From: an uncultured Nitrospiraceae bacterium
GTDB lineage: Bacteria > Nitrospirota > Nitrospiria > Nitrospirales > UBA2166
Length of the DNA: 64,000 nt
Assembly (NCBI GenBank): GCA_964463965.1
Contig: CAYXED010000002.1
Span: forward strand, 155,387 to 219,386
Direction of reading: 5' to 3'
Under the pieces are notes generated by a model. The model did not search any database, was not told the origin of the DNA, and saw nothing but the letters and a program-made list of their open reading frames with translations. Positions 15,160 to 44,443 of the stretch are shown here, one piece after another (positions within the stretch are counted from its first letter, which is position 1; the number at the start of each line of letters is the position of its first letter). The position numbers and the translations under genes were made by a program.

Positions 15160-15160
15160 T

Positions 15161-19247: not shown

Positions 19248-19277
19248 GTTGATAATCTGAATTAAAATGTGAAGAGT

Positions 19278-20111: not shown

Positions 20112-20174
20112 TTATTATTGTTGGTTTTTGAATTTGTGGTTGCTAGGTACTTTTTTCTCTAGCACGTTGTTTTC

Positions 20175-27564: not shown

Positions 27565-29652
27565 ATGGCAGTTGTTTTTATTGAGCACCTTTCGTTGCGT
27601 GTGTGGTTCTTCAATGTATGGCCACATTTGGTCGTGAGGCGTTTGAGTGGCGCTGCAAGGGTAGAACAATGTTTTGTTTTTGACGCAAATCAATGTTCAC
27701 TATGGCTGGCAGGTGTGATTTCACGGATGCTTGGCTGTAAGGTATTGAGGTTAAAATTTAGGCGTGTAGATGTGCAGGATGATGCTGGAAATATGATTGA
27801 AGAACGATTGAGGTTTTTTGACTTATTTGAAACACAAGAAGCAATGAGAGATATTTTCAGGGCTTCGCTAGCACAATATGACTTTTACTCACCCATTAGA
27901 ACTTTTCTTGAAAAGGAGTTTGTTGCAGCTGTGAGGCGACATGTGCTACTCGTGCAGGTTTCTTTATGGAAAGCAAAGAAAATACACTGTGCTGAAACAC
28001 CAACACTATTTATTGCATGTGAGAGCGGATTTTCTGCGATCGCTGCATATGCAAAACTTCATGGTGTTCAGGTTGTCGGATTTCGAAAGCCTTGGAGACC
28101 AATCAATTTCTTAAGGCATCTGGTCGGATGGGAAGGAGTCCCTCTTTTTCGTTCTATACGGCATTATCTAGCTGTTCTTTTTATTTTACTGCGATGGTGG
28201 TTGACTAAAAATCCTAGAAGTTGCTCAGGCTTCGAATTAAAGCCTGCAGGAACAAAACAGCTTGATGATGATCAAGGGTTAAATCAGAAAATTAAATTAG
28301 CTCTCCAGCAATATGGCCAATTGCACCTAGAAAGCCCTGAAAAGGCTTCTGACCTTTTCTTTTGGCAACAATCAGAAATTTTAGCTGAAGACATGCTTGT
28401 ACTTTTGAACTCTCGGCGTTCCATTCAGGATGAACAGGGAATGGATGCTGCTGGAATTTCTAGACTTGCATTGTCACCTCAAGGGCTTATCACTTCAAAG
28501 ACCCCTTCGTATATTTTTTGGTCAGATATTCAGAATAAAAGACTGCCTTCTCGTAATGGCCTTCTTTCTTCTCTAGAATCACTGTGGCTCACTAGTAAAA
28601 TTAATGCCTATCACGAGATGAAGTCTTACTGGAAAACACTGTTTTCTACTGAGCAGGTAAAAATTTTTTGTACGTGGCAACGATTTAATGCGCAGCACTG
28701 TCCTATCACTGATGCTTTGAGAGAATGTGGAGGGATTATGGCCATGTATCCTCGTGCATATAATCCTCACCCATGCCCGCTCACAGCTGTGTCAATTGAT
28801 GTGTGTTTTTCATATTCAAAGTTGGATGCTGATGTTGAACGTCGATCGTATTCGAATATCCCTTATCATGTTGTCACTGGTTTTATTGGGGACCACAGGT
28901 TTTCTCTTGTGAAACCTGAAGCCAATCGTGTGCGAATGATGTTGCAAGGTAATGGTGCTAAGAAAATAATTGCGTTGTTTGATGAAAACTCAGGTGACGA
29001 TCCACGGTGGCATACAGACCACGAATTTACCAAAGGCAACTATATTGTTTTGCTCGAGAAAGTTCTTCAGGAGCCATGGCTTGCTTTGGTTATCAAACCA
29101 AAAGTTCCTGGAACTCTCCGTCGTCGACTTGGTGATGTTACTCATATTTTGGATAGAGCAATTGCGACGGGTCGATGTTATATCTATGAGGAGAGTGGGA
29201 CCGCTACGTCCTATTCGCCTGCGATTGCAGCATTGTCCGCTGATATTGCTGTGCATGCTCATTTATGTGCAGGTACTGCTGGAGTTGAATCAGCGTTGGC
29301 AGGAGTGCCTACTTTATTGGTTGACCGGGAAGGATGGTCCGTCAGTCCTCTCTATGAATTGGGGGTAGGCCGTGTGGTGTTTCGAGATTGGGATACTTTG
29401 TGGAATGCCTGTTTGGATCATTGGGCGAGCCCTGGTGGGATACCAGGTTTTGGTAGTTGGGCATCGATAATCAATACAATTGATCCTTTTCGTGATGGAC
29501 GTGCTGCCGAAAGGATGGGTACTTATCTCAAATGGATCCTTGATGATTTGAAGGATGGGCTTTCCCGTGAGATGGCGATGGCTAATGCGGCAGAACGCTA
29601 TTGTATGATCTGGGGACAAGATAAAATTTCAGAAGTTTCTCGACTGGTATGA
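27565..29652 (+). CDS. Hypothetical protein, 695 aa (candidate novel glycosyl/nonulosonate transferase)
   Basis: Long uninterrupted ORF with an ATG start and no motif I recognise. It lies immediately downstream of the PtmE/LegB/LegC block. Confidence 0.6.
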   Translation: MAVVFIEHLSLRVWFFNVWPHLVVRRLSGAARVEQCFVFDANQCSLWLAGVISRMLGCKVLRLKFRRVDVQDDAGNMIEERLRFFDLFETQEAMRDIFRASLAQYDFYSPIRTFLEKEFVAAVRRHVLLVQVSLWKAKKIHCAETPTLFIACESGFSAIAAYAKLHGVQVVGFRKPWRPINFLRHLVGWEGVPLFRSIRHYLAVLFILLRWWLTKNPRSCSGFELKPAGTKQLDDDQGLNQKIKLALQQYGQLHLESPEKASDLFFWQQSEILAEDMLVLLNSRRSIQDEQGMDAAGISRLALSPQGLITSKTPSYIFWSDIQNKRLPSRNGLLSSLESLWLTSKINAYHEMKSYWKTLFSTEQVKIFCTWQRFNAQHCPITDALRECGGIMAMYPRAYNPHPCPLTAVSIDVCFSYSKLDADVERRSYSNIPYHVVTGFIGDHRFSLVKPEANRVRMMLQGNGAKKIIALFDENSGDDPRWHTDHEFTKGNYIVLLEKVLQEPWLALVIKPKVPGTLRRRLGDVTHILDRAIATGRCYIYEESGTATSYSPAIAALSADIAVHAHLCAGTAGVESALAGVPTLLVDREGWSVSPLYELGVGRVVFRDWDTLWNACLDHWASPGGIPGFGSWASIINTIDPFRDGRAAERMGTYLKWILDDLKDGLSREMAMANAAERYCMIWGQDKISEVSRLV

Positions 29653-30625: not shown

Positions 30626-31807
30626 TTGGAAGATAAGTTTGAAGTTATTAATGTAGGGGATAAGGCCGACATTACTCATATCATTTCTGAGAATGATGTT
30701 GACCGATATGCAGATATTACTGGGGACACTAACCCCCTTCATATGAGTGAGGAGTATGCTTCGACGACATCGTTTAAAAAGCGAGTTGTCCATGGGATGC
30801 TGACAGCATCATTTATTTCCAACATCATTGGAACCAAGCTCCCAGGGACTGGGGCTCTATGGTATGAGTTGAACATTAGGTTTATTGCACCTGTGCGTAT
30901 TGGTGATGAGATCACAGTGCATGCAGAGGTTATAAGAAAATCACGCGCTTTACGTGTTGTATCATTGGACATTCACGTACAACTAAAAAACTCTCAACGA
31001 GTAATTGAAGGACAGGCAAAAGTAAAAATATTGGAGCAAAAAAAAAAAGGTGAAGCCATCATGAATTCAGGAGCGGTAATTATTACAGGGGCAAGTCGTG
31101 GAATTGGTGCAGCAACGGCACGTTTATTGGCGTCTACTGGAATTCCTGTTGTTGTTAATTACCTGAAAAGTGAGGAGAAGGCACGTGCATTGGTTAATTC
31201 TCTCGCACAGGACGGCCATCAGGCAATTGCTGTTGCGGGGGATGTTTGTTCCTCTCAGGATATGATTGGTCTTGTTGAAGCTGCCATATCTAAATTTGGG
31301 TCACTTAGAGGTATTGTCAACAATGCTTCAGCTTACCCTCAAAGTAAAGCTTTCGATGATTTAAGCTGGAGTAATTTTCAAGAGCAAATTGATGTACAGA
31401 TCAAAGGGGCTTTTCATTTATGCCAGGCAGCAATGCCATGGTTTTTGAAACAGGGGAGCGGCTCAATTGTTAACATAGGATCTATTTTTTCTGATGGCAT
31501 TCCTCCTTCGTTTTTAATGCCATATGTGGTTTCGAAAGCGGCGTTAAATGCGTTTACGAAATCACTTGCTGCAGAGTATGGGCCAAAAAATATTAGAGTA
31601 AATTCTGTTGCTCCAGGGATGACTGATACCGATTTTATTGCAGATGTTCCTGAGAAGACACGGATGTTGAACAAAATGCAGGCCCCACTTCGCCGATTAG
31701 CTGAACCAGAAGATACTGCTGGGGCAGTGGCATATTTGTTAAGCCATCAGTCAAAATTTGTTACTGGGGAGACAATTAGAGTTTGTGGTGGGATTGTGAT
31801 GTGCTGA
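30626..31807 (+). CDS. MaoC-like (R)-hydratase/dehydratase fused to a FabG-like SDR
   Basis: 393 aa. Residues 1-140 carry the hydratase-2 motif ADITGDTNPLHMSEEYAS. Residues 150-393 carry IITGASRGIGAATA and YVVSKAALNAF. The TTG start is preceded by ggggag. The fusion depends on the length of the A11 tract. Confidence 0.8.
   Translation: MEDKFEVINVGDKADITHIISENDVDRYADITGDTNPLHMSEEYASTTSFKKRVVHGMLTASFISNIIGTKLPGTGALWYELNIRFIAPVRIGDEITVHAEVIRKSRALRVVSLDIHVQLKNSQRVIEGQAKVKILEQKKKGEAIMNSGAVIITGASRGIGAATARLLASTGIPVVVNYLKSEEKARALVNSLAQDGHQAIAVAGDVCSSQDMIGLVEAAISKFGSLRGIVNNASAYPQSKAFDDLSWSNFQEQIDVQIKGAFHLCQAAMPWFLKQGSGSIVNIGSIFSDGIPPSFLMPYVVSKAALNAFTKSLAAEYGPKNIRVNSVAPGMTDTDFIADVPEKTRMLNKMQAPLRRLAEPEDTAGAVAYLLSHQSKFVTGETIRVCGGIVMC
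31038..31048 (+). repeat. A11 homopolymer at the MaoC/SDR domain junction
   Basis: Direct count gives caa aaa aaa aaa (QKKK). It is the longest homopolymer I found in the window. Confidence 0.95.
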
Positions 31808-31830
31808 CATATGGGTATGAGTAGATAATT

Positions 31831-33639
31831 GTGTACAATTTGACCTATGCAGAAATCCAGGCAGAGCTTGCAGGGCGGGATCTTTCCTGGTTACAAAAAT
31901 TTAACATAGCCGTTTTGAGAAATATTACTGTTGAGTCGATTGAGCCGCTATTGAGATATGAAGCAGCTCACTTAGGCCTCAATGCGGCGGTGTCTTTTGG
32001 TCAATTTGACAATATCTTCCAAGAGACTGTTGGAGAGGACGAAGAGTTACTACAATCAGCTGATTGTATTTTAGTTTTTACCCATCTTGAAACTCTTTCA
32101 CCTGCATTTTCTATGAGTTTTTCTTCTTTAGGAAAAGATGACATCAAGGGTGAGCTTGAGCGAAATTTTGAATATTTCAGGAGTGTTTTAGCTGGGATTA
32201 GGAAAAAAACTGAATCAGTCGTTCTGTGGCATGGCGTAGTTGCGCCAGCACATCCATCGTTTGGAATTGCTGATTGGATTGTTGAATGTGGGCAACGAAA
32301 AACTATAAATCAACTGAATGAATTGTTACGAGAAGCTTTGAGCGAAGTAAAGAGTGCATATTATGTAGATATGGATGCGTGTGCCGCTCGTGTGGGTCAT
32401 GAGAATTTTTTTGATGCTAGGTTTTGGCATATTGGGAAAGCACCGTATCACCGCAGAGCCCTTATGGAAATTGCGAGGGAAGATTTTGTATTTATTCGTG
32501 GGTTTATAGGAAAAACAAAAAAATGTCTTGTGCTTGACTGTGATAATACGCTGTGGGGTGGGATTCTTGGCGAAGATGGGATTCAAAATATCCAGCTTTC
32601 TCAATCACATCCTGGTTCATCGTTTTGGGAGTTCCAACGAGAAATAGTCAATCTACATAATAGGGGAGTTTTGATAGCACTTTGCAGTAAAAACAATGAA
32701 GCAGATGTCTGGGAAGTTTTTGATACCCATCCCGACATGGTGTTGAAGCGGGAGCATATTTCTTCGGCTCAGATTAATTGGGAAGACAAGGCTAGCAATA
32801 TTAAGCGAATTGCTGATGAGTTGAATATTGGACTTGACAGTCTCGTATATCTCGATGACTCAGCCTTTGAAATTAATTTAATTGAATGTGAGGTGCCAGA
32901 GGTAATGGCGATACAGCTGATGCCTGAACAAGCGGTGAAATATAGAAAAATTTTGTCTTCCGGAGGATGGTTCGACCGTCTAAGTGTTACTGAGGAAGAC
33001 AAACAGCGTGGAGCAATGTATCGTGCAGAAATCAAACGAAAAAAATTACGTGGCCAAACTACAGATTTAACAGAGTATTATAGATCTTTAAATATGAACT
33101 TAGAAATACGGTTTATTACTGAGGCTACATTACCTCGCATTACACAGTTAACACAAAAAACCAATCAGTTTAATTTGACTACCAAGCGCTACACTGAAAC
33201 TGAAATTCATAGTTTTATGACGTCCAAAGAGCATGATATCTTAGGCGTTCGCTTGAATGACCGTTTTGGTGATTCAGGAATTATAGGAGTAGGAATTCTC
33301 GATCGTAGCGGACATCCTAATGAGGCTAGGATCGACACTTTCTTATTGTCGTGCCGTGTATTGGGACGGGGTGTTGAGGACATGGTTCTTGCCCACCTTA
33401 TGCGTTTGGCCGCTGCGCGGGGAGTCTCAAGAGTTGTGGGTGTTTATGTGCAGACTAAAAAAAATGAGCAAGTTAAAGAGTTTTATCCTCGTCATGGGTT
33501 TATATCTGAACCTCTCAGTCTAGAGATACAAGAGGGGAGAGGGCTTTCTTCTAATCTCTTCTCTGCAGATCTTGGAGTGTATAGTAGCAATGTCCCTGAT
33601 TTTTTTGATTCAGTAATTTCAGATGTTGACTATGTTTGA
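31831..33639 (+). CDS. FkbH-like HAD-IIIC phosphatase/acyl-loading enzyme with C-terminal GNAT-like region
   Basis: 602 aa with LVLDCDNTLWGG (DxDxT), LCSKNNE and YLDDS. GTG start. Confidence 0.8.
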   Translation: MYNLTYAEIQAELAGRDLSWLQKFNIAVLRNITVESIEPLLRYEAAHLGLNAAVSFGQFDNIFQETVGEDEELLQSADCILVFTHLETLSPAFSMSFSSLGKDDIKGELERNFEYFRSVLAGIRKKTESVVLWHGVVAPAHPSFGIADWIVECGQRKTINQLNELLREALSEVKSAYYVDMDACAARVGHENFFDARFWHIGKAPYHRRALMEIAREDFVFIRGFIGKTKKCLVLDCDNTLWGGILGEDGIQNIQLSQSHPGSSFWEFQREIVNLHNRGVLIALCSKNNEADVWEVFDTHPDMVLKREHISSAQINWEDKASNIKRIADELNIGLDSLVYLDDSAFEINLIECEVPEVMAIQLMPEQAVKYRKILSSGGWFDRLSVTEEDKQRGAMYRAEIKRKKLRGQTTDLTEYYRSLNMNLEIRFITEATLPRITQLTQKTNQFNLTTKRYTETEIHSFMTSKEHDILGVRLNDRFGDSGIIGVGILDRSGHPNEARIDTFLLSCRVLGRGVEDMVLAHLMRLAAARGVSRVVGVYVQTKKNEQVKEFYPRHGFISEPLSLEIQEGRGLSSNLFSADLGVYSSNVPDFFDSVISDVDYV

Positions 33640-33666
33640 AAACGTGCCTGGTTCTCAGCTACTGTT

Positions 33667-33906
33667 ATGACTATTAAAGACCGTGTGATTAAAGTTGTGA
33701 GTATGACGCTCCAAGTGCCAGCGAGCAGTATTAATGAAGCTTCATCACCAGACAATATTGAGCAATGGGATTCGATGCAGCACATGAATCTTATTTTGGG
33801 GCTTGAAGAAGAGTTTTCTGTACAATTTACAGATCAGCAAGTTGTTGATCTTTTAAATGTTGAGTTAATCGTGATGACGCTTGTAGAGTTGGGGGTTAGT
33901 GATTAA
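33667..33906 (+). CDS. Acyl carrier protein
   Basis: 79 aa, acidic, with an ACP pattern and a candidate phosphopantetheine Ser in EQWDSMQHMNLI. Confidence 0.8.
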   Translation: MTIKDRVIKVVSMTLQVPASSINEASSPDNIEQWDSMQHMNLILGLEEEFSVQFTDQQVVDLLNVELIVMTLVELGVSD

Positions 33907-34513
33907 TCAACCACAGCAGCGTACGTTGAGACGTGTTATCACGCACGAATGCTCTGAGTGGTTTAAGTATACAGTGATATATTTTCCTGGGAGTATCGGG
34001 TTCCGATTGCGAAGAGCATATTATGGGTTCTTTCTTAAGGGAAGGCTAGGGGAATATCCAACTATCGGTTTTGGTACTTGTCTTGAAAACTTAGATGGCC
34101 TGATTGTAGGGGATGGCTTGTTAACAGGACCGTTTGTGCATATTGTGCCTGGTGCTTGTCTTGGTATTCGTATTGGCAATCACGTTTCTATTGCTGATGG
34201 GGCATTTATTCGGTCGGCAAATCACTCTTATTTTGATCTTGATAAAAGAATACAGGATCAAGGCCATTTTAGTAAGGAAGTCAAGACATCTAAGGGGGAG
34301 AGTGCAAGTATTATCATTGAAGATAACGTACATATTGGTGCAAGGTGTATTATTCTCTCTGGGGCAAAAATTGGTGAAGGCAGCATTGTCGCTGCAGGCG
34401 CAGTTGTCTCTTCAGAGATCCCAGAAAACTCAATTGTTGCAGGAAACCCAGCAAGAGTGATTGCTAGTCGCGAAAAACTTTCGTTTTCAAAAAATATTAT
34501 TCAAACACCATGA
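33899..34513 (+). CDS. Hexapeptide-repeat (LbH) acyltransferase
   Basis: 204 aa with IGNHVSIADGAFI and IEDNVHIGARCIILSGAKIGEGSIVAAGAVV. The GTG start overlaps the ACP stop by 8 nt. Confidence 0.8.
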   Translation: MINQPQQRTLRRVITHECSEWFKYTVIYFPGSIGFRLRRAYYGFFLKGRLGEYPTIGFGTCLENLDGLIVGDGLLTGPFVHIVPGACLGIRIGNHVSIADGAFIRSANHSYFDLDKRIQDQGHFSKEVKTSKGESASIIIEDNVHIGARCIILSGAKIGEGSIVAAGAVVSSEIPENSIVAGNPARVIASREKLSFSKNIIQTP

Positions 34514-34600
34514 ATATGATAATGTTTAATCGATCTACTCACATTTTTGGCTTTTGGCTATTTATGCAGATTGGCTATGGGATGGTAGAGGTATAGATAC

Positions 34601-35380
34601 GTGTCGAGTTATATAACTACACTTTTCAATGTGAAAGGAAAAGTAGCAGCTCTCACAGGTGCTGCTGGATACCTTGTTGGAGAGATTGCGTCTGGATTTA
34701 TAAAGGCTGGGGCAAAAGTTGCTCTATTGGATAAGGATTCGGATCGACTTGAAAAAGTATTTAAGAAAATTAAGGCTGACGGAGGTGATGCGCTTGTATT
34801 ACCGACTGATGTTACCAGTAAAGAATCATTTGAGGGAGCCTTAGAGAAAGTACTTGAGCGATACAATGATGTTGATTTTCTTGTAAATGGCGCTGGTTTT
34901 AATGCGCCCACTCCCTTCCTCGATATTACTGTTGATGAATGGAATAGTATTATCAGTGTGCAGCTTACAGGTACAATGCTAGGTTGCCAAGTATTTGGTG
35001 GTTATATGGTCTCTCAAGGGAAGGGTTCCATTATTAACATTTCTTCTGCATCAGCTGGCCCACCACTTTCAAAAGCATTTACATATTCAGTTGCTAAAGC
35101 TGGAGTGAAAAACCTCACGGAAAACTTAGCGCGTGAATGGGCAATCTCTGGAGTGAGAGTCAACGCGTTACGACCAGGGTTTTTTCCAACGGAATGGAGC
35201 AAAAAACATTTTTTATCTGCAGACCGTGTTGAGGCTATTCTCAACCATACTCCCATGAAGAGATTTGGGGAGCCTCACGAATTAGTTGGTACCGTGCTAT
35301 GGTTGTGTGCAGAGTCTTCAAGTTTTGTGACTGGAGCAGAAATTAAAGTTGACGGTGGTTTTTCCGCGATGACTATATGA
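34601..35380 (+). CDS. Short-chain dehydrogenase/reductase
   Basis: 259 aa with LTGAAGYLVGEIA, NGAG and YSVAKAGVKNL. GTG start. Confidence 0.85.
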   Translation: MSSYITTLFNVKGKVAALTGAAGYLVGEIASGFIKAGAKVALLDKDSDRLEKVFKKIKADGGDALVLPTDVTSKESFEGALEKVLERYNDVDFLVNGAGFNAPTPFLDITVDEWNSIISVQLTGTMLGCQVFGGYMVSQGKGSIINISSASAGPPLSKAFTYSVAKAGVKNLTENLAREWAISGVRVNALRPGFFPTEWSKKHFLSADRVEAILNHTPMKRFGEPHELVGTVLWLCAESSSFVTGAEIKVDGGFSAMTI

Positions 35381-36135
35381 CCCTTCCTCAAACTATTATT
35401 GTGACTGGAGGCACAAAAGGCATAGGAGCCGAAATATCAAGTGCCTTTTGTAAGTCAGGGGCATCAGTTCTTATTGGTGCTAGGCATGATAATGGTTTTG
35501 TAAAAGATCTCGGCAAAACAGCCCGTTTTCAGTGCATCGATGTGTGTAGGCCTAATGATCACAAAATGCTAGTTGAAGCAGCATTAGAATGGACAGGGCG
35601 TATTGACGTGTTTATTAATTGTGCGGGTTATTCAGCATGGAAGCCTGTAGTGGGAATTGATGAGCATTTCTGGGATCAAATGATTGATACTAATCTAAAA
35701 GGCACATTTTTTGGCTGCCAAGCAGCAGCAGAGCATCTTCAAAGTCCAGGTGGATCAATTATCAACATATCAAGCTTAGCTGGAAAGCGTGGGAGTGCAA
35801 ACAATTCTGTCTATTGTGCCTCAAAGTTTGGAGTTAACGGACTGACTCAAGCTTTAGCAAAAGAACTTGGGCCACGTGGAATTAGGGTAAATGCTGTGTG
35901 CCCTGTTTATGTGCAGACCCCTGGACTGCTTAATGCGCTTCAAGATATTCATGCCCCTCCACTAGGTACAGATGTTACTCAGTATTTAGAAACGTTCACC
36001 GAAGGAAATTCGGCCTTATCTCGCTTGCCTTCTGGTAATGAAGTTGCGAAAGCTTGTATCTTTTTAGCATCTAAGGAATCGTCGGCGATTACTGGGCAAT
36101 GTATTAATGTCGATTGTGGTGTGTTACCTCAATAA
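35377..36135 (+). CDS. Short-chain dehydrogenase/reductase
   Basis: 252 aa with VTGGTKGIGAEIS and YCASKFGVNGL. ATGA overlap with the upstream gene. Confidence 0.9.
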   Translation: MTLPQTIIVTGGTKGIGAEISSAFCKSGASVLIGARHDNGFVKDLGKTARFQCIDVCRPNDHKMLVEAALEWTGRIDVFINCAGYSAWKPVVGIDEHFWDQMIDTNLKGTFFGCQAAAEHLQSPGGSIINISSLAGKRGSANNSVYCASKFGVNGLTQALAKELGPRGIRVNAVCPVYVQTPGLLNALQDIHAPPLGTDVTQYLETFTEGNSALSRLPSGNEVAKACIFLASKESSAITGQCINVDCGVLPQ

Positions 36136-36272
36136 ACTACCTACTTTCTTATTAGAGACCATATGACCAATATGGGTTTTCTATGTAGTGGCAAAGGCAG
36201 ATACCTCCCCCCCTCTATTTAATTGATGAGTAAAGTTTATCTTCCAATGAAAATTTATTAGTTGAGGCATCC

Positions 36273-37052
36273 GTGAAGGGGAAAAAAGTTATAGCTATAG
36301 TGCCAGCCAGAATGGCCTCATCGCGCTTTCCAGGTAAGCCACTCACAATGATCCATGGTTTGGCGATGGTTGAACATGTTCGCCGGAGAGCTTTGTTGGC
36401 TAATGGTATTGATGAGGTTGTTGTTGCGACGTGTGATAAAGTTATTGCTGATACCGTTATTTCCGCAGGAGGTGAAGCAGTTATGACCTCGGATAAACAT
36501 GAGCGTTCAACTGAACGTGTTGCTGAGGCAATGCAATCTCTTACTGGAGATGTTGTTGTAGTTGTTCAGGGGGATGAGCCTCTGCTTTTGCCGCACACTG
36601 TTGAACGTGTGGCAAACCCTTTAGTTGAAAGAGATGATGTTCAATGTGCAGCGTTTCTCTCAAATATTAAGCATGAAAGCGATTATGATAACCCGAATAT
36701 TGTGAAGGCAGCATGTGATCAGAGAGATTTTGTCTTCTTTTTGTCTCGGGCAAGAATCCCCTATGTTCGACGGCCAGGTTCTTTGCCTATATATCGCGAG
36801 ACTGGAATTAGGGCATTTAAATCCACTTTTCTTCCTGTCTATGCACAGTTAAGGGAAACACCTCTTGAGAAAGCAGAGGAAGTCGATATGCTGCGTATAT
36901 TGGAACATCGATACTCAATCTTGGGTGTTTTAGGAGATGAAGAAACGATTGGCGTAGACCATAAAGAGGATATTGAAGGTATTGAATGTAGCTTGAAAAC
37001 AGATCCTGTACAAATAGCCCTACACAAGGCTATTACCGGAGGCAGTGCATGA
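36273..37052 (+). CDS. KdsB-like 3-deoxy-ulosonate cytidylyltransferase
   Basis: 259 aa with AIVPARMASSRFPGKPL and VVQGDEPLL, closely following the KdsB pattern. GTG start. Confidence 0.8.
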   Translation: MKGKKVIAIVPARMASSRFPGKPLTMIHGLAMVEHVRRRALLANGIDEVVVATCDKVIADTVISAGGEAVMTSDKHERSTERVAEAMQSLTGDVVVVVQGDEPLLLPHTVERVANPLVERDDVQCAAFLSNIKHESDYDNPNIVKAACDQRDFVFFLSRARIPYVRRPGSLPIYRETGIRAFKSTFLPVYAQLRETPLEKAEEVDMLRILEHRYSILGVLGDEETIGVDHKEDIEGIECSLKTDPVQIALHKAITGGSA

Positions 37053-38101
37053 AAGCGGTCATTATTGGATACGGATATATGGGGGAAATTCGAAAGCGTG
37101 TTATAGACACGATTGATGGGCTTACCCTTGAAGCAATTTGTGATCCAAATTTAAATTCTAATGATACAAATCATGATTGCCCCATTTACGATGATTATCG
37201 TGAGGTAATTGACAAGGTATGCCCTGATATAGTTTTTGTTTGTACCCCTAATAGGTTTTCTCCAGAAGTTTGTGTATACGCTATGGAGCGAGGGCATCAT
37301 GTCTTTTGTGAAAAACCCCCTGGAAGAAATCTTCAGGATATTAGGAAAATTATTGCTGCAGAACAGGGAGCTCAAAATGTGAAATTGATGTTTGGGTTCA
37401 ATCATCGCCATCATCCAGCCATTCTTGAGGCAAAGGCTTTGGTTGATGCTGGGCGAATGGGGCGTATTATGTGGTTACGTGGAGTATATGGGAAATCTGG
37501 TGGATTTGGGAGTAGTTTTGAAAGTTCATGGCGTAATGATCCTGCTATTTCTGGTGGTGGGATTCTTTTAGATCAAGGAATTCATATGCTTGATCTGTTT
37601 AGGTTTTTTTGTGGTGATTTTGAGCATGTTCAAGGATTATTAACAACGGCATGCTGGGATATTCCTGTTGAGGATAATGCGTTTGTACTGTTACGCAATA
37701 AGCAGGGACAGATTGCTCAACTCCACTCTTCGGCGACATTATGGAAACATACTTTTCATATAGAACTTGGGCTAGAGAGAGGATATTTAATCGCCCATGG
37801 GCTTCTGTCAAAGACCGGAAGCTATGGGAGAGAGACATTGATTATTGGGCGTAAGCCTGCCACTGCTGATGAAGCTGCCGTGGGTAACCCTCGAGAAGAA
37901 ATTATTTATTTTGATAAAGATTTGTCGTGGGATGTACAAGTTCTAGAGTTATTGCACTGTATAGAGAATGATTGCCCTGTGGTTGAAAGTTCATCGAGTG
38001 ATGCCTTGAAGGTAATGGAGCTGATTGATGCCGTATATCGGGAAGCAGGAGCAAATGTTGAGCTATCGGTTGCGTCGATGACTGCAGAGGAACGGTCATG
38101 A
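37049..38101 (+). CDS. Gfo/Idh/MocA-family oxidoreductase (paralogue of 6564-7550)
   Basis: 350 aa with VIIGYGYMG, VFCEKPP, FGFNHRHH and GGGILLDQGIHMLDLF. Confidence 0.9.
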   Translation: MKAVIIGYGYMGEIRKRVIDTIDGLTLEAICDPNLNSNDTNHDCPIYDDYREVIDKVCPDIVFVCTPNRFSPEVCVYAMERGHHVFCEKPPGRNLQDIRKIIAAEQGAQNVKLMFGFNHRHHPAILEAKALVDAGRMGRIMWLRGVYGKSGGFGSSFESSWRNDPAISGGGILLDQGIHMLDLFRFFCGDFEHVQGLLTTACWDIPVEDNAFVLLRNKQGQIAQLHSSATLWKHTFHIELGLERGYLIAHGLLSKTGSYGRETLIIGRKPATADEAAVGNPREEIIYFDKDLSWDVQVLELLHCIENDCPVVESSSSDALKVMELIDAVYREAGANVELSVASMTAEERS

Positions 38102-39123
38102 AAACTGTTGTTTTTGAGCAAAACTGTATGGAGTTTGAAATCAAACCTCATGAAATGTTGGGGAAATATCTTGCCTTGAGTGGAAGAGAGATTGAGTCAT
38201 GGCTTTTAGATTCTGACCAATTGGTAGAGTGTGTTTGTCCAGGATGCCAAGAGAGTAAGAGTGTTATCGCATTTGAAAAGCTTGGTCTGACATATCGTGA
38301 GTGCGTTCATTGTAGGTCTGTGTATGTAACGCCTCGACCACAGGAAACGCTCCTTGTTGATTTCTATAGAAACTCACGTGCTGCAAGATTTTGGAGAGAG
38401 AGTATTCTTTTAGAAACAAAAAATATGAGACGAGAAAAAGTCTTTAAGCCTCGTGCTCAATGGTTGTTGGGAGTAGTGGATCGTTATTATCCATCGGCTG
38501 CTAAAGGTATTGTTATTGGTTATCATAATGACTTGCTCATTCAGGAGCTTTCGTCCCAAGAAAAACATCTTTTTGAAATGATAGTTACTAATCCAATTGC
38601 AGATATTGAATATGAAAAAACGAACTTTCAGAATGTCCGTATTTGCCCTGAGAATATTGTAGATGTACCTTCACATGGACCTGTCGAGCTGTTTTTGGCA
38701 TTTGACATATTAGATCGTTGTTATGATGTTAATACAGTACTTTCAACTGCAAGTCAGGTTTTGTCTCCAGGAGGGCTCCTTCTGGGTAGTACGGTGTTAA
38801 GTACTGGGTTTGATATACAAGTATTATGGGATCGCTCTGAAAATACATATCCCCCTGACCGGCTTAATCTTCTTTCAGTTGAAGGCTTAACTACGTTGTA
38901 TGAACGACATGGCTTTGAGGCAATTGAATTTAGCACCCCGGGTATGTTTGATGTTGAGGTTGTTGAACGAGCAATACGTTCAAGCTCGGAAGAGAACTGG
39001 CCAAAATTTATTCGTTATGTACTTGAAAGTAGGAACGAAGAGGCTAAAAGTGATCTTCAAGAATACCTTCAGCGGTATCGTTTGAGCTCATTTGCACGAT
39101 TTGTTTTGAGGAAGAAAAGCTAA
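38098..39123 (+). CDS. Zn-ribbon plus class I methyltransferase-like protein
   Basis: 341 aa. N-terminal CPGC...CVHC four-Cys ribbon. The later segment VELFLAFDILDRCYDVNTVLSTASQVLSPGGLLLGS resembles MTase motifs II-III. The glycine-rich SAM loop is not obvious. Confidence 0.5.
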   Translation: MKTVVFEQNCMEFEIKPHEMLGKYLALSGREIESWLLDSDQLVECVCPGCQESKSVIAFEKLGLTYRECVHCRSVYVTPRPQETLLVDFYRNSRAARFWRESILLETKNMRREKVFKPRAQWLLGVVDRYYPSAAKGIVIGYHNDLLIQELSSQEKHLFEMIVTNPIADIEYEKTNFQNVRICPENIVDVPSHGPVELFLAFDILDRCYDVNTVLSTASQVLSPGGLLLGSTVLSTGFDIQVLWDRSENTYPPDRLNLLSVEGLTTLYERHGFEAIEFSTPGMFDVEVVERAIRSSSEENWPKFIRYVLESRNEEAKSDLQEYLQRYRLSSFARFVLRKKS

Positions 39124-39127
39124 ATTT

Positions 39128-39937
39128 TTGAATGGTGACAATATGTTAGCAGAAAAAATACACAAAATTTTCCAAGAAGGAAAAGTTAGTATTGGATCTT
39201 GGATGTCTATGGCTCATGTTTCAATTGCTGAAATTTTAGCAGGAGCTGGGTTTGATTGGGTCGTGATTGAGACGGAGCATACTGCTATTGATGTGTCAGA
39301 AGTATTGCGTCTTATCATTGCGCTTGAAGGAGAAGGGACTGTCCCGTTGGTGCGGCTTGCTTGGAATGATCCTATCCAAGCTAAAGCAGTATTGGATTCA
39401 GGGGCAGCTGGTGTTTTAGTTCCCAATGTCAATACCAAGGAAGATGCTGAATTAGCCGTTAGTAGTGTCAAGTATCCTCCATTAGGTTCTCGTGGTGTCG
39501 GTCTTGCACGGGCGCAAAGATATGGAGAAGATCTGCAGCACTATGTTGAGCGTGCGAATCGAGACAGTTTACTTATGGTGCAGATTGAACATATTGATGC
39601 TGTGAATAATATTGACAGTATTCTTTCCGTGCCTGGTATTACTGGCACATTTATTGGTCCATATGATTTATCTTTATCTATGGGGCTAGTAGGGCAATTG
39701 TCTCACCCTAAAGTGCAGGCGGCCAAACAGCGTGTATTGGAAGCGACTAAGGATCATGGGCTGGTTCCTGGAATTCATTTAGTACACTCAGATACTGCAG
39801 CCGAAGAATTTAAGCAATGTGTAGAAGTGGGCTATAAATTCATCGCCTTAGGTACTGATATTTTATTTCTTGGAAACTCTTGCCGTGATCTTCACGCTAA
39901 AACGCGTAACTTCCTCAAAAAAATAACAGTCAATTGA
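39128..39937 (+). CDS. HpcH/HpaI-family class II (pyruvate) aldolase
   Basis: SWMSMAHVSIAEILAGAGFDWVVIETEHTAIDV and VRL...GVLVPNV match the family pattern. The start is TTG 39128 or ATG 39143. Confidence 0.8.
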   Translation: MNGDNMLAEKIHKIFQEGKVSIGSWMSMAHVSIAEILAGAGFDWVVIETEHTAIDVSEVLRLIIALEGEGTVPLVRLAWNDPIQAKAVLDSGAAGVLVPNVNTKEDAELAVSSVKYPPLGSRGVGLARAQRYGEDLQHYVERANRDSLLMVQIEHIDAVNNIDSILSVPGITGTFIGPYDLSLSMGLVGQLSHPKVQAAKQRVLEATKDHGLVPGIHLVHSDTAAEEFKQCVEVGYKFIALGTDILFLGNSCRDLHAKTRNFLKKITVN

Positions 39938-40593
39938 CCGTACTTCGTGCCATCGTTTTGGACTTTGATGGTGTGCTCGCCGAGTCTAACGAAGTCAAGG
40001 AGCATGCCTTTGAAGACTTATTTGCGCTATATCCGCTCTATCAAGAGGACATGCGGAACTATCATAGAGAGCACTACTCCATGCCACGTGAAGAGAAGTT
40101 TAAATATTATGTTTCAAATTTCATGGGGAGAAAAAATGATTTGGCTATGACCTCAACTATGTCAAAGCAGTTCTCAGACTTTGTAAAACCTCTCGTAATT
40201 AGTGCTCCGGATGTGCCTGGAGCTAGGGAATTTCTTAACGAGTTTTCAACAAAAATTCCCCTATATATCTCATCTGTGACTCCGCAATCTGAATTATTAG
40301 AAATTGTTGCTGCAAGAGGGATAGCTCCTATGGTTCAGGGAATTTTTGGAAATCCGCCATGGAGAAAACCCGATGCAATATGTGAGATTTTGAAACGTGA
40401 AAATGCAGATCCGTCAGAGGTTGTATTTATTGGGGATTCTCCGTCAGATTTTTATTCCGCAAAAGAAGTTGGAGTAAGGTTTATTGGGCGAGACAGTGGA
40501 GTGCTATTTGATGGCATTGAGGTGAAGCTACATAAAAATTTATTTATAATTTCAAGCATTGTACGAGAATTGGTAAAGGGGCGAGATGACTGA
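39934..40593 (+). CDS. HAD-superfamily phosphatase (phosphoglycolate-phosphatase-like)
   Basis: 219 aa with VLDFDGVLAES (DxDG) and IGDSPSD. TTGA overlap with the upstream gene. Confidence 0.8.
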   Translation: MTVLRAIVLDFDGVLAESNEVKEHAFEDLFALYPLYQEDMRNYHREHYSMPREEKFKYYVSNFMGRKNDLAMTSTMSKQFSDFVKPLVISAPDVPGAREFLNEFSTKIPLYISSVTPQSELLEIVAARGIAPMVQGIFGNPPWRKPDAICEILKRENADPSEVVFIGDSPSDFYSAKEVGVRFIGRDSGVLFDGIEVKLHKNLFIISSIVRELVKGRDD

Positions 40594-41521
40594 CGTCGAT
40601 ATTTTTGTAACATTATCTACTTTTTGCGAAGACTCTGATGAACCAATGATGGTTTTGGAACAAAGTGGTTTTACTTTCAATGTAAACTCTCTTGCACGGC
40701 GTATGACTTCTGGGGAAGTAATTGAATTAGGAGGGAAGGCGAGGGCGTTTGTTGCGGGTCTAGAGAAATATGATGCAGAAACCATTTCACAAATGCCTAA
40801 TATATCTTGCATAAGTCGCTGCGGGGTTGGGATTGATAATATTGATTTGAAAGTTGCAGAACAGAGAAATATTGAAATTTTAAATACTCCTGAGGAGCCT
40901 ATCATTGCGGTAGCCGAAATGACATTGGCCATGATGCTTGCGTTGCTTCGTCAGCTTCCCCGTGTGAATGCTTTAATGAGGGATAGAAAGTGGAAACGTG
41001 TGCGAGGAAACCTTCTTGCGGGCAAGACAATTGGAATCATCGGAATGGGGCGTATTGGGAAGCGTGTAATTGAGCTTGTTAGGGCATTCCGTGCACGTGC
41101 TATTGTGGTAGATCCTTTCCCTGATATTAATTGGGCACGTGAGAATGAGGTGGAGCTGGTCGATATGAATGAGCTCCTTCAGCGCGCTGAAATTATTTCC
41201 ATTCACGCATCTCCATCCGGGGACAATGTGTGTTTATTGGATGAAGAAAATATCCAGAAAATTCGTCCTGGAGCGTGGTTAATTAATATGGCTAGGGGAG
41301 ATATGGTAAATGATGTAGCCCTCGCTAGTGCGCTTTTATCCGGACAACTGAGCGGTGTTGGTATGGATGTGTTTTCTACCGAACCTTATAGTGGCGTTCT
41401 CTGTGATAGTGATCGTGTGATGCTATCTCCACACCAAGCAACATTAACTGTAGAAACTCGTGAAAAAATGGAACTTAAGGCAGTCAAAAATGCTGTTGAC
41501 TACCTTAAAGCACACGGTTGA
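40586..41521 (+). CDS. D-isomer-specific 2-hydroxyacid dehydrogenase (phosphoglycerate dehydrogenase-like)
   Basis: 311 aa with GKTIGIIGMGRIGKRV and the Arg/Glu/His triad context (MARGDMV, DVFSTEP, SPHQA). Confidence 0.85.
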   Translation: MTDVDIFVTLSTFCEDSDEPMMVLEQSGFTFNVNSLARRMTSGEVIELGGKARAFVAGLEKYDAETISQMPNISCISRCGVGIDNIDLKVAEQRNIEILNTPEEPIIAVAEMTLAMMLALLRQLPRVNALMRDRKWKRVRGNLLAGKTIGIIGMGRIGKRVIELVRAFRARAIVVDPFPDINWARENEVELVDMNELLQRAEIISIHASPSGDNVCLLDEENIQKIRPGAWLINMARGDMVNDVALASALLSGQLSGVGMDVFSTEPYSGVLCDSDRVMLSPHQATLTVETREKMELKAVKNAVDYLKAHG

Positions 41522-43137
41522 CTTTTTTAAAGGCTCTGGATATGACAGAAGAGCAGTTTAGCTATGTTACCGCTGCATGCGACAGAATTCTAACCCGATC
41601 AAATGTTCCTCTTGAGTGGGTAGCCATCCCCTGGCTTCATGTGCATTGTGGCCATCCACATTATCTGGCCAACTACATGGGTCTTTTAAAAAGTATGCAT
41701 GTTTCTGATTGCCAGGGGAATGATGCCTATGATAAGGGCATGAGTTTAGAAAAACTCTTCAGCGCAACGTATAAAATAGGGAAGACTGCAAAAAATATAT
41801 TATGGGGATCTCCATATAAAAAAAGTAAATCTTCATGCAAGTTGGATTTCGGGCACACCAATCAGATAGATATTATTATAGTGTCATGGCTAGTCAATAC
41901 CGCTCATCTTGAGCATCAAGATGATTTCTATTTTGGGAGCCTTCAGTCACTTCTAGCTGGGAGAGGCCTAAATTCACTGCTTGTGTTGAAGAATCAGACA
42001 GGACTTCCTACTTATTCTCTCCTTGATCGTGCGCGACGCATTGGGGCTAGCGCAAGGATAATGCTTCCAGATACAAATACTCTTTTTAGGGAGCTTGGTT
42101 ACCTTAAGCGTGTTGTTGGGGCACGATATCAACTTAATGTTTTAGAGAATGAGGCATTCTCTATCATAGAGAAAAACGTGTGCCGGGAGGCAAAACAACG
42201 TGTTGTGTCAAATGGCACAATTGCTAATCTTCGTTTGCATGACCAGATGGTTGATTTGTGTCAGCAGGTTCGACCATCTATCGTAATTTCCTTGTATGAA
42301 GGATACTCTTGGGAACGATGCCTTTGGAGAGCAGTTCGAGATTCTAAGGTGTCTGCCTGTCGTGTGGGGTATCAACATACAGTATTACGGAAACATGCGC
42401 ACTCTGCTATCCGGACATTTGGGCAAACCAATCAATATGATCCAGATATTATTCTTGCTCTCGGCGAGATAACACAAAATATATTACAAAGGAAAGATGC
42501 CACTAAAAACTCTCCAGTATTTTCCTTTGGATCTCATCGACGTATGCCACGTAAAGTATTAGATGGTAAACCAAGTTTTATCTCAACGTTTCTTGTGCTG
42601 CCTGAGGGTATGCCAACAGAAGCAATTTTTCTCTTTGAATTTGCGATCACTTGTGCAAAACGATTAGAGAAAGTTAAATTTATTTTTCGTACTCACCCTA
42701 ATTTAGACTTTCTAAGCATTAAAGGGAATATTCGGGGATTTGATGATGAATTGCATAATGTTGAAGTGAGTAACAAACAACTACTTGAAGATGATTTAGA
42801 GAGGTCAGGTTACGTAATGTATCGGGGGTCGTCATCAGTCCTATATGCAGTAATTGCAGGATTGAAGCCATTTTATATTGAAAAATTTGGTGAAATGTCA
42901 ATTGATCCATTGTACGAATTAAAGACATGGAGAGAAACTATTCATTCCATAGATGATTGGGAAAGTATATTTTTGAAATCTCAGATTGATAAAGATAAAA
43001 ATGGTGATCAGGGTTGGGAATCTGCTCGAGCGTACTGTGATAGGTATGCTCCGCCTGTTCAAGGACTAGCAATTGACAGTATGTTGAAGGCGGCAATTGG
43101 TTTTAAAAACACACCGCCTGTGCAGCATAGAGGATGA
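41518..43137 (+). CDS. Hypothetical protein, 539 aa (candidate transferase)
   Basis: Long ORF with no motif I recognise. The start is TTG 41518 (TTGA overlap) or ATG 41542. Confidence 0.6.
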   Translation: MTFLKALDMTEEQFSYVTAACDRILTRSNVPLEWVAIPWLHVHCGHPHYLANYMGLLKSMHVSDCQGNDAYDKGMSLEKLFSATYKIGKTAKNILWGSPYKKSKSSCKLDFGHTNQIDIIIVSWLVNTAHLEHQDDFYFGSLQSLLAGRGLNSLLVLKNQTGLPTYSLLDRARRIGASARIMLPDTNTLFRELGYLKRVVGARYQLNVLENEAFSIIEKNVCREAKQRVVSNGTIANLRLHDQMVDLCQQVRPSIVISLYEGYSWERCLWRAVRDSKVSACRVGYQHTVLRKHAHSAIRTFGQTNQYDPDIILALGEITQNILQRKDATKNSPVFSFGSHRRMPRKVLDGKPSFISTFLVLPEGMPTEAIFLFEFAITCAKRLEKVKFIFRTHPNLDFLSIKGNIRGFDDELHNVEVSNKQLLEDDLERSGYVMYRGSSSVLYAVIAGLKPFYIEKFGEMSIDPLYELKTWRETIHSIDDWESIFLKSQIDKDKNGDQGWESARAYCDRYAPPVQGLAIDSMLKAAIGFKNTPPVQHRG

Positions 43138-43146
43138 GGAGGAAGC

Positions 43147-43743
43147 ATGGTATATGCAGCTCAGTATTTGGCGGAAACTGCTCAGATTGTTGAGAAACTC
43201 GACCCTAATGCCATTGAAAAGCTTGCACGGATGATTGTTGAGATGCGTGCACAAGGAGGACGGTTATTTATTTTGGGTGTTGGTGGAGGTGCTGGGCATG
43301 CTTCTCATGCTGTATGTGATTTCAGGAAGATTGCTGGCATTGAGTGTTATGCGCCAAGTGATAATGTATCGGAGTTGACTGCTCGAGTAAATGATGAAGG
43401 GTGGGATACTACATATGCAGAGTGGCTTAAAATTAGCCGTCTTTGTGGCAATGATCTTATCCTTATTTTTTCCGTTGGAGGAGGTGACCGAGAGAGGAAT
43501 GTAAGTCAAAACATTGTGTGTGCAATCGATTATGCTCAGAAAGTAAGGGCAAAGGTCATGGGGATTGTTGGGCGTGATGGGGGGTACACTGCAAAGGTTG
43601 CAGATGCGTGTGTGATAGTTCCCACTGTAAATCCAAAATCTGTGACGGTTCATACTGAAGGGTTTCAAGCACTTCTCTGGCATCTATTAGTGTCACACCC
43701 TGATGTGCAAAAGGGTCCTATGAAATGGGAGACACTCCAATAA
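43147..43743 (+). CDS. SIS-domain isomerase (GmhA-like phosphoheptose isomerase family)
   Basis: 198 aa with LFILGVGGGAGHASHAVCDF and ILIFSVGGG. Confidence 0.8.
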   Translation: MVYAAQYLAETAQIVEKLDPNAIEKLARMIVEMRAQGGRLFILGVGGGAGHASHAVCDFRKIAGIECYAPSDNVSELTARVNDEGWDTTYAEWLKISRLCGNDLILIFSVGGGDRERNVSQNIVCAIDYAQKVRAKVMGIVGRDGGYTAKVADACVIVPTVNPKSVTVHTEGFQALLWHLLVSHPDVQKGPMKWETLQ

Positions 43744-43759
43744 TTGGAGGTATGGGAAA

Positions 43760-44443
43760 ATGCCAATTTTTCTAGACTCAAGTAACCTTGATGAAATTAA
43801 GCCATTCCATCGGATGGGTATCGTGCGAGGGGTAACCACCAATCCAACCATTATGCTTAAAGACGGAGTTGCTGGAGGCATGCAGGCAATTGAAGAGAGA
43901 TCAAAAGCAATTGCTACGCTTATTGCCCCTTATCCTCTTTCTGTTGAAGTGACTACAAATGATAGGAAAAAAATGCTTGAACAGGCTAGGGCGTATGCTG
44001 AGTGGGCAGATAACATTGTGGTCAAAATTACCATTCATGGACCAGAGGGAGAACTTGAGAACATGGAAGTTATTCATGAACTAGAGACTGTTCATGATGT
44101 TCGTGTCAATGTCACAGCCATGATGAGTGCTCAGCAATGCTTATTAGCCGCAATGGCGGGAGCAACATATGTGTCACTTTTTGGTGGGAGAGTCAACAAT
44201 ATGGGTTATAACGCTTGTGGAGAAATTCGGAGACTTCGACAGGTTCTAGATGATTTTGATCTTCCTGCAAAAATTATTGTTGGGTCGACGAGAGAGGTTC
44301 TTAATGTTATTGAATGGTTAGAAGCAGGTGCACACATTGTAACGACTGTTCCAAATTTGATACGTGGTATGCTCGTCCACCCGTATTCAAAAGAAACAGT
44401 CCAAATGTTTCTTCGGGATGCCAAGAAGTCCGAAGAATTATAA
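43760..44443 (+). CDS. Transaldolase-family protein, short type (TalC / fructose-6-phosphate aldolase-like)
   Basis: 227 aa with N-terminal FLDSSNLDEIKPFHRMGIVRGVTTNPTI and a Schiff-base lysine context NIVVKITIHG. Confidence 0.85.
   Translation: MPIFLDSSNLDEIKPFHRMGIVRGVTTNPTIMLKDGVAGGMQAIEERSKAIATLIAPYPLSVEVTTNDRKKMLEQARAYAEWADNIVVKITIHGPEGELENMEVIHELETVHDVRVNVTAMMSAQQCLLAAMAGATYVSLFGGRVNNMGYNACGEIRRLRQVLDDFDLPAKIIVGSTREVLNVIEWLEAGAHIVTTVPNLIRGMLVHPYSKETVQMFLRDAKKSEEL

Follow-up and report, generated by a model that had tools for sequence, protein, structure and literature searches.

What would a dedicated acyl carrier protein (ACP) and an enzyme of the FkbH family be doing in a bacterial glycan locus? 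The question is raised by a 64,000-nt stretch of DNA from an uncultured Nitrospiraceae bacterium (contig CAYXED010000002.1, positions 155,387 to 219,386; the whole of this stretch is referred to as the window), in which positions 1 to ~60.2 kb form a single glycan locus, encoded almost entirely on the plus strand and followed by a minus-strand UvrA gene starting at ~60.2 kb. A preliminary description of this DNA had recognized six genes at 30626-36135 and interpreted them as one unit for making an acyl group. Six open reading frames (ORFs) on the plus strand sit exactly at these coordinates, and independent public gene predictions for SUTE22-1_SAMN10231917_METAG-scaffold_4 (586,671 bp), the metagenome scaffold of origin, are identical for the six genes, which confirms this part of the description; all six are intact, with lengths that agree with those of their homologues, no pseudogenes, and E-values that rule out chance. 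We propose, with moderate confidence, that the first four genes (30626-34513) constitute a cassette that would build a three-carbon (C3) hydroxyacyl group on the ACP and attach it to a sugar of the surface glycan; our confidence in a specific lactyl product and in a specific acceptor is lower than that in this general mechanism. The genes in question, including two that encode short-chain dehydrogenases/reductases (SDRs), and their immediate context are:

30626..31807, + strand: fusion of a MaoC domain with a FabG-like SDR (Pfam PF01575 and PF13561)
31831..33639, + strand: stand-alone FkbH with an N-terminal domain, a HAD-IIIC phosphatase domain and a GNAT-like C-terminal domain carrying a conserved Cys (TIGR01686)
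33667..33906, + strand: 79-aa ACP, from an orthologue profile; predicted phosphopantetheine site Ser36 (WDS)
33899..34513, + strand: LbH (hexapeptide) acyltransferase (Hexapep, E 2.5e-12)
34601..35380, + strand: SDR1, first gene of the downstream sugar-acid module, from synteny; nearest family D-mannonate oxidoreductase-like
35377..36135, + strand: SDR2, of the same downstream module, from synteny; 4-nt overlap with SDR1 (translational coupling)
36273..44443, + strand: context and probable acceptor pathway, from family matches: KdsB-like cytidylyltransferase, GFO oxidoreductase, methyltransferase-like protein, HpcH/HpaI pyruvate aldolase and HAD phosphatase, with, as the remaining genes, PGDH-like 2-hydroxyacid dehydrogenase, an unknown 539-aa protein, GmhA-like SIS isomerase and FSA-type aldolase

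The domain inventory of the window, based on Pfam and NCBIfam, covers its 56 ORFs of at least 150 aa. No ketosynthase (KS), acyltransferase (AT), condensation or adenylation domain was detected among them, in agreement with the earlier statement that no KS or AT gene of the polyketide synthase (PKS) type is present, and the families of the FkbK-type 3-hydroxyacyl-CoA dehydrogenase and the FkbI-type acyl-CoA dehydrogenase were likewise absent from this set. Intergenic gaps of the cassette region contain no promoter- or terminator-like sites, so that operon limits are not definable in this way.

FkbH, its carrier protein and the MaoC-SDR fusion

The FkbH protein scores 322.8 bits against TIGR01686 over residues 229-558 (cut-off 146.65), also matches HAD-IIIC, and contains the DxDxT motif LVLDCDNTLWGG on which its family assignment had originally been based. 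Homologues number more than 7,900, the closest being ~53% identical and ~600 aa long, and the sole solved relative, an uncharacterised Bacteroides fragilis protein (PDB 3slr), matches residues 173-388. From an alignment of 34 stand-alone and 38 megasynthase-embedded homologues, we identified residues conserved at 90% or more in both classes; these mapped to the HAD phosphatase domain (D236/D238/T240, S286, K320 and D342/D343) and to the C-terminal domain (T444-N448, D477/F479/G480 and S507-C508-R509...G512-R513), and all of them are present in the window protein. We take the C-terminal Cys to correspond to the residue of OzmB that carries the glyceryl-S-enzyme intermediate, and its catalytic role is presumed on that basis. 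Loading of an ACP by FkbH is established for the methoxymalonyl-ACP and tetronate pathways (PMC7489565), while FkbH domains load the glycerate unit of nonribosomal peptide synthetases (NRPS), which is O-methylated afterwards in NRPS of the aeruginosin type (PMC10143770).

Across 79 genome loci, FkbH sequences separate cleanly into two classes. Stand-alone proteins, 510-690 aa in length, are 34-53% identical to the window FkbH; for embedded domains, found within proteins of 1,300-5,500 aa together with condensation, adenylation, KS and carrier domains, the identity is 30-33%. The surroundings of 31 stand-alone FkbH genes, 222 ORFs lying no more than 3.3 kb away and classified with Pfam, include PP-binding proteins (18), hexapeptide transferases (13), glyoxalase/VOC proteins (8), MBOAT proteins (6) and MaoC proteins (5), alongside methyltransferases, glycosyltransferases and NDP-sugar enzymes, with no PKS or NRPS domain among the frequent families; two annotated examples are plain polysaccharide loci. 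Stand-alone FkbH-ACP pairs are thus widespread in glycan loci, apart from the FkbH domains embedded in PKS and NRPS, and the possibility left open by the preliminary description, that the module travels with PKS/NRPS genes and not glycan genes in relatives, is not borne out around these 31 genes. With this clade now set apart, it can also be seen that genome mining could mistake such loci for secondary-metabolite clusters. In 8 of the 31 stand-alone loci, mostly ones without MaoC (L001, L006, L081 and others), the gene immediately before FkbH encodes a glyoxalase/VOC protein (PF13669) and often has a methyltransferase gene ahead of it in turn; ACP-bound glycerate would seem to be tailored there in a second way. 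On the megasynthase side, the 4.2-Mb assembled chromosome OW818645.1 carries at least eight FkbH loci (L025, L026, L034, L044, L045, L052, L068 and L069) and the related Eubacteriales genome OY969939.1 at least four (L030, L036, L053 and L059), an unusual multiplicity of glycerate-loading modules.

The 79-aa ORF taken alone has no Pfam match and only sub-threshold NCBIfam ACP matches. A profile of 19 sequences, comprising the window protein and 18 orthologues encoded beside FkbH genes, matches 110 solved ACP chains (best 2lml, 5e-15; Escherichia coli ACP, 1e-11). W34, S36 and E47 are invariant among these orthologues, and S36 aligns with the phosphopantetheinylated Ser of the DSL motif in the E. 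coli protein, so that the earlier identification of this ORF as an ACP is upheld by the profile and its invariant Ser. It is the sole ACP of the window (33667-33906). BLAST homologues adjoin FkbH in 25 of 72 genome loci with an FkbH ORF, including 24 of the 31 stand-alone ones, as well as in most metagenome loci; neighbouring genes in GC-rich loci were taken from BLAST and tblastn searches with the window proteins together with same-strand ORF sets.

Upstream of FkbH, the fusion protein comprises a MaoC domain (residues 19-107; PF01575, E 7e-23) and an SDR domain (residues 150-392; PF13561 adh_short_C2, E 1e-59). Its hydratase-2 motif, YADITGDTNPLHMSEEYA, is intact and fits the pattern that we take to define the family, [YF]-x(1,2)-[LVIG]-[STGC]-G-D-x-N-P-[LIV]-H-x5-[AS], with catalytic Asp and His; the corresponding D34 and H39 are invariant in four orthologues. 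The SDR half carries the cofactor motif TGASRGIG, retains S286, Y300 and K304 as residues invariant in the orthologues, finds its best PDB matches among FabG enzymes (E 2e-41), and is probably of the NADPH type. Relatives of the fusion were collected by scanning metagenomes with a four-sequence MaoC-SDR alignment, the window protein alone having returned nothing as query. The best 80 of 533 relatives were kept, 55 of them being informative in having at least 2.2 kb of downstream sequence, and in 49 of these FkbH and then ACP follow directly downstream. Among the six exceptions, one locus has FkbH-ACP directly upstream (L095), one has FkbH ~3 kb upstream (L086) and four lack it, giving a linkage of ~93%; the triad of MaoC-SDR, FkbH and ACP was also found in Pseudodesulfovibrio, in Latescibacterota and in a gammaproteobacterium. 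MaoC- or SDR-like regions were not detected inside FkbH-containing megasynthases at E <= 1e-8. MaoC-SDR is therefore a near-obligate, dedicated partner of FkbH, and this linkage makes it almost certain that what FkbH produces is the substrate of the fused dehydratase and reductase, with the acyl group probably processed beyond glyceroyl. In place of plain glyceroyl, one of the short hydroxyacyl groups envisaged in the preliminary description, a dehydrated and reduced C3 unit appears more likely, and lactyl (or pyruvoyl) would be reached by the most economical chemistry. Formation of lactoyl- or pyruvoyl-ACP from 1,3-bisphosphoglycerate has been described (PMC6162330), as have loading modules comprising dehydratase (DH), methyltransferase (MT), FkbH and ACP domains (PMC4552970), one of which we observed in L077.

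Closer examination of the flanks of the triad in 26 metagenome loci revealed FabH-like KSIII proteins (16), AMP-ligases (13), metallo-beta-lactamases (13), GNAT proteins (8) and hexapeptide transferases (4), together with sugar genes. The typical larger order is SDR, metallo-beta-lactamase, FabH-like, MaoC/SDR, FkbH, ACP, AMP-ligase, one further ORF and a DegT-like aminotransferase (L085-L164; e.g. L154:5599-14096). The triad hence behaves as a portable donor module serving different downstream enzymes, of which the window, with the triad and then a transferase, represents the simplest version.

The LbH acyltransferase and the adjoining sugar-acid module

The LbH gene begins at a GTG that overlaps the ACP stop by 8 nt, as had been noticed at the outset. 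Its best matches are WbbJ, DapH, QdtC and maltose O-acetyltransferase, with LpxA reaching only E 5e-6 and weaker, and its score against the WbbJ model (71 bits) lies far below the cut-off of 243. The stretch from residue 83 to 189 aligns with maltose O-acetyltransferases and takes in the catalytic His (H108), 'SANHS...' being placed opposite 'ATHP...'. An extended loop follows this His ahead of the C-terminal coils, which suggests resemblance to the maltose/galactoside O-acetyltransferases and not equivalence; N-acetyltransferases align only across the generic C-terminal coils. Given this resemblance to O-acetyltransferases, an ester appears at least as likely as an amide, and N-acylation would not be favoured over O-acylation.

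The genomic contexts of the five closest LbH homologues with traceable neighbourhoods associate this clade with carrier-protein loading. In L168-L171 (49-52% identity) all four homologues lie directly beside MaoC(/SDR)-FkbH-ACP, and all four loci also possess an HpcH aldolase plus an adjacent KdsB-like cytidylyltransferase and/or 2-hydroxyacid dehydrogenase; L170 and L171 are compact sets consisting only of the cassette and HpcH/KdsB-like/2-hydroxyacid dehydrogenase-type genes. The fifth homologue (P0289 locus, 49%) lies beside a fused 2-oxoacid-dehydrogenase E1, a lipoyl-domain E2, a phosphopantetheinyl transferase and an HpcH aldolase fragment, a set that may provide an alternative supply of a short hydroxyacyl unit to the same LbH clade. 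FkbH-ACP-LbH with overlapping genes also occurs in Gemmatimonadota. Two further matches (L009 and L010, 53-55%) were rejected as close homologues, having covered only 45-52 residues of the hexapeptide region. Since the nearest homologues adjoin carrier-protein loading genes, a role of LbH in unloading the ACP is supported, with use of an acyl-ACP donor being suggested by synteny. The preliminary description had LbH transferring an ACP-bound acyl group to an amino sugar or nonulosonic acid; the tie to FkbH-ACP stands, whereas the proposed acceptor and N-acylation are not favoured.

Homologues of SDR1 share 64-74% identity and are all ~259 aa long, and homologues of SDR2 (58-70% identity) directly follow SDR1 in L165-L167. 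On these three independent contigs the SDR pair is accompanied by genes for KdsB-like, GFO, methyltransferase-like, HpcH and 2-hydroxyacid dehydrogenase proteins, with HAD phosphatase, 539-aa unknown, SIS and FSA/transaldolase genes as locus-dependent extras, and neither FkbH, ACP nor MaoC adjoins the module there; conversely, no close SDR1 homologue adjoins FkbH in the 79 genome loci. The genes that follow SDR2 in the window comprise the same set, spaced by -8 to +16 nt. L165 carries, two genes ahead of SDR1, a 60%-identical copy of the methyltransferase encoded at 29706 in the window, and the window looks like an L165-like arrangement with the four-gene cassette inserted between this methyltransferase and SDR1. 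An acyl-tailoring role for SDR1 and SDR2 was consequently rejected: the pair, which the preliminary description had included in the acyl unit, travels with the KdsB-like/GFO/HpcH/2-hydroxyacid dehydrogenase module in loci without FkbH or ACP. The O-methylation of the acyl group that it had considered also lost its footing for two of the three methyltransferases named, those at 29706 and 38098, as both genes recur in loci without FkbH and nothing ties them to the acyl group.

All or most of the module running from the SDR pair to the FSA gene (window 34601-44443) recurs in seven unrelated contigs (L165-L171). Judged by its gene families, the module seems suited to making a CMP-activated 3-deoxy-ulosonic acid by means of a pyruvate aldolase, which would replace a synthase of the NeuB or KdsA type; we know of no description of such an aldolase-based sugar-acid pathway. 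Its 2-hydroxyacid dehydrogenase is PGDH/hydroxypyruvate-reductase-like. NeuB proved to be rare near the triad, only 7 of the 80 related loci having it at a distance of 8 kb or less, and the association is instead with the HpcH/KdsB-like module. Because the LbH homologues of L168-L171 are located near the aldolase/cytidylyltransferase module and not near NeuB, the likely acceptor candidate is the sugar acid of this module and not a NeuB-derived nonulosonic acid.

Proposed mechanism and competing explanations

Under the mechanism that we propose, FkbH would take 1,3-bisphosphoglycerate, its HAD domain would strip the 3-phosphate, and its conserved Cys would hand the glyceryl group to the holo-ACP, as expected from family membership and conserved catalytic residues. 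The MaoC domain would dehydrate glyceryl-S-ACP across C2-C3 to the enol of pyruvoyl-S-ACP, and the FabG-like reductase would turn the 2-keto group into lactyl-S-ACP, two steps suggested by the near-obligate linkage and by the chemistry. LbH, to judge from translational coupling and the conserved synteny of its clade, would take the acyl group off the ACP and place it on a hydroxyl or amino function of a sugar, for which the most likely candidate would be the CMP-activated sugar acid, or its precursor, from the adjacent HpcH-aldolase/KdsB-like module, a pathway that SDR1 and SDR2 (34601-36135) would serve, taking no part in acyl-unit synthesis. The core idea of the preliminary description, that FkbH, a dedicated ACP and LbH form a carrier-based acyl-donor unit within a glycan locus free of PKS and NRPS, is thus supported by domains and synteny. 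The cassette is assembled from known parts, and its reading goes beyond routine annotation. In the literature searched we found no demonstration of an ACP/FkbH three-carbon donor route for bacterial glycans, such a route being known from antibiotic synthesis.

Several points weigh against this mechanism. No phosphopantetheinyl transferase of the ACPS or Sfp type was detected among the window ORFs of at least 150 aa; one could be encoded elsewhere in the genome. To our knowledge MaoC enzymes have not been reported to dehydrate glycerate thioesters, and the published precedent for lactyl and pyruvoyl units involves DH domains of the PKS type whereas the window encodes a MaoC protein. The FabH-like, AMP-ligase and metallo-beta-lactamase genes of the larger metagenome clusters have no counterpart in the window, and the product may vary by context. 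Among the matches of LbH no close characterised relative was found, its sequence is like the acetyl-CoA-dependent O-acetyltransferases and unlike the acyl-ACP-dependent LpxA and LpxD, and a 29%-identical LbH occurs inside the SDR1 module of L167 without an adjacent FkbH.

Of the alternatives, the one nearest to the preliminary description, namely that an unprocessed glyceroyl-ACP, possibly O-methylated, N-acylates a NeuB-derived nonulosonic acid with both SDRs engaged in acyl tailoring, seems to us improbable. N-glyceroyl pseudaminic acid is documented in Tannerella forsythia, and papers of 2017-2018 call the origin of its glyceroyl group and the genes behind it elusive (PMC5378307, PMC6120980), which agrees with the earlier remark that the source of this donor is ill defined; FkbH-loaded glycerate is O-methylated in the aeruginosin-type NRPS cited above (PMC10143770), the window contains two NeuB genes, Leg-type genes and methyltransferases, and the flagellar glycosylation locus of Campylobacter jejuni includes an FkbH-domain gene, Cj1302 (PMC7099621). 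The ~93% linkage of MaoC-SDR to FkbH argues, however, for further processing, SDR1, SDR2 and the methyltransferases at 29706 and 38098 recur without FkbH, NeuB is rare near the triad, and LbH is O-acetyltransferase-like. Far less probable still is the making of a hydroxymalonyl- or methoxymalonyl-type ACP, as for FK520 or zwittermicin, in the service of a cryptic small molecule. The combination of FkbH, ACP, dehydrogenases and methyltransferases does resemble the methoxymalonyl-ACP gene set (PMC7489565), but FkbK and FkbI are absent, on which ground we rejected such a pathway, the ORFs of at least 150 aa in the 64 kb encode no KS, AT, condensation or adenylation domain, the whole region to 60.2 kb is made up of glycan genes, and the FkbH domains associated with PKS and NRPS form a separate and more distant group.

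Two other explanations, which we regard as about equally unlikely and as slightly less credible than direct N-glyceroylation, concern the fate of the acyl-ACP. According to one, the ACP module would supply a C3 building block (pyruvoyl, lactyl or at the aldehyde level) for the backbone of the sugar acid and not its decoration, consistent with the presence of an HpcH aldolase in all five nearest LbH contexts and the window, with the KdsB-like and/or 2-hydroxyacid dehydrogenase genes beside the cassette in L168-L171 and the window, L170 and L171 being compact, and with a PGDH/hydroxypyruvate-reductase-like dehydrogenase that also acts at the glycerate level. Yet the HpcH/KdsB-like module is complete without FkbH, ACP and LbH in L165 and L166, so that the cassette appears as an optional add-on, as expected of a decoration; moreover, class II pyruvate aldolases generally take free 2-oxo acids and not thioesters, and LbH has no obvious role in backbone assembly. 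The other would make LbH an ordinary acetyl-CoA-dependent O-acetyltransferase acting on the glycan or on the hydroxyl of ACP-bound glyceryl, in the manner of the acetylation-elimination step of tetronate pathways, with a different protein unloading the ACP. This explanation is favoured by the maltose/galactoside O-acetyltransferase-like sequence with its catalytic His, by the homologous LbH of L167 without adjacent FkbH, and by the tetronate 'glycerate utilisation operon', in which an acyltransferase and a dehydratase act after FkbH-ACP (PMC7489565). Against it, no other acyltransferase, thioesterase or ligase is encoded in or beside the window cassette, the LbH clade is syntenic with carrier-protein loading genes in five of its five nearest contexts, and the tetronate acyltransferase probably belongs to another protein family.

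Returning to the proposed transfer of a C3 hydroxyacyl group from the ACP to a glycan sugar, a broader claim would be that a widespread module diverts 1,3-bisphosphoglycerate to lactyl-type or other C3 acyl-ACP for glycans, that the LbH clade uses acyl-ACP, and that a new, aldolase-made CMP-sugar acid is the acceptor; this is possible, but we consider it rather doubtful in full. Antigenicity and recognition by phages and by the immune system are shaped by the non-acetyl acyl groups that bacterial surface sugars carry, glyceroyl, lactyl and hydroxybutyryl among them. The cassette offers a concrete four-protein hypothesis that is open to in vitro reconstitution, its conserved partners show which genes go together, and it points to the adjacent, apparently undescribed aldolase-based sugar-acid pathway.

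The wider locus and known systems

Beyond the cassette and its adjoining module, the locus contains a number of further features. Its first part (1-12284) encodes a PhyH-like dioxygenase, an ABC exporter, a 650-aa unknown protein, an SDR, a 3-dehydroquinate-synthase-like protein, a GFO oxidoreductase, an SIS isomerase, a PIG-L deacetylase and a B12-radical-SAM enzyme, which may represent an additional unusual sugar or cyclitol pathway. The region 12447-20846 comprises a NeuB paralogue with an SAF domain at 12447, followed by an ATP-grasp ligase and a HAD hydrolase, and a second NeuB paralogue at 16459, followed by a cytidylyltransferase-GFO fusion, an SDR and a PglD-like transferase; the two sets suggest two distinct nonulosonic acids, or an amino-acid-decorated one. 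Between a LegC-like aminotransferase gene and the cassette lies a gene for a 695-aa protein without Pfam or NCBIfam match (27565-29652). Because a homologue with 42% identity is placed directly between a LegC-like gene and FkbH in L169:860-2917, this protein may belong with the cassette, and it could be the transferase for the modified sugar. A sulfotransferase gene (54084-54971) is located amid glycosyltransferases, so that the glycan may be sulfated; the genes that come next encode two DegT aminotransferases, a PglC-like initiating transferase and a PglF-like dehydratase. The co-oriented genes of the first 60 kb show a strongly positive GC skew (0.08-0.29), which drops to ~0 beyond 60 kb, where the orientation changes.

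Compared with the glyceryl-ACP loading systems of PKS, tetronate and NRPS pathways represented by FkbH, OzmB and Tmn16, the window has an FkbH domain of the same kind, in which every conserved phosphatase and Cys residue is retained, as well as an adjacent, dedicated stand-alone ACP. Unlike them, it has neither KS, AT nor FabH-like condensing enzyme, and neither FkbK nor FkbI; its FkbH belongs to a separate stand-alone clade of glycan loci, and its output is proposed to pass to LbH. The FkbH, ACP and FabH-like set of the metagenome loci resembles the 'glycerate utilisation' set of tetronate pathways, but occurs amid sugar genes. Bryostatin, FR901464 and lankacidin are reportedly produced by trans-AT PKS with lactyl or pyruvoyl starter modules of the type DH, ketoreductase (KR), FkbH and ACP. 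With such DH-KR-FkbH-ACP modules the window would share the logic of FkbH, dehydratase and ketoreductase acting on ACP-bound glycerate; in contrast to them, its MaoC hot-dog hydratase-2 and FabG-type SDR are fused as a discrete protein, and the proposed product would go to a glycan.

Glyceroyl-type modifications occur on C. jejuni flagellin. Like the window FkbH, Cj1302 of C. jejuni NCTC 11168 is an FkbH-domain gene in a nonulosonic-acid flagellar glycosylation locus; the available part of the source names it only as such, and as a pseudogene in one strain, with no function or partners given (PMC7099621). Apart from this mention, we found no open-access paper linking FkbH to a polysaccharide pathway, and none pairing it with an O-antigen.

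ACP-dependent acylation of amino sugars is exemplified by the perosamine tetronate genes rfbK-O of Vibrio cholerae O1 and by the vioR/S/T genes for modified viosamine in Pseudomonas syringae. Flagellin glycosylation islands of Aeromonas similarly contain ACP, FabG and ligase genes (PMC7874193). As in the window, in these three systems a dedicated ACP and fatty-acid-type enzymes within a glycan locus, some with a hexapeptide transferase, give a non-acetyl acyl group. The difference lies in the supply of the unit, since in these systems fatty-acid or amino-acid precursors reach the ACP through ligases or FabH-type chemistry, whereas the cassette described here is proposed to draw on glycolysis via FkbH.

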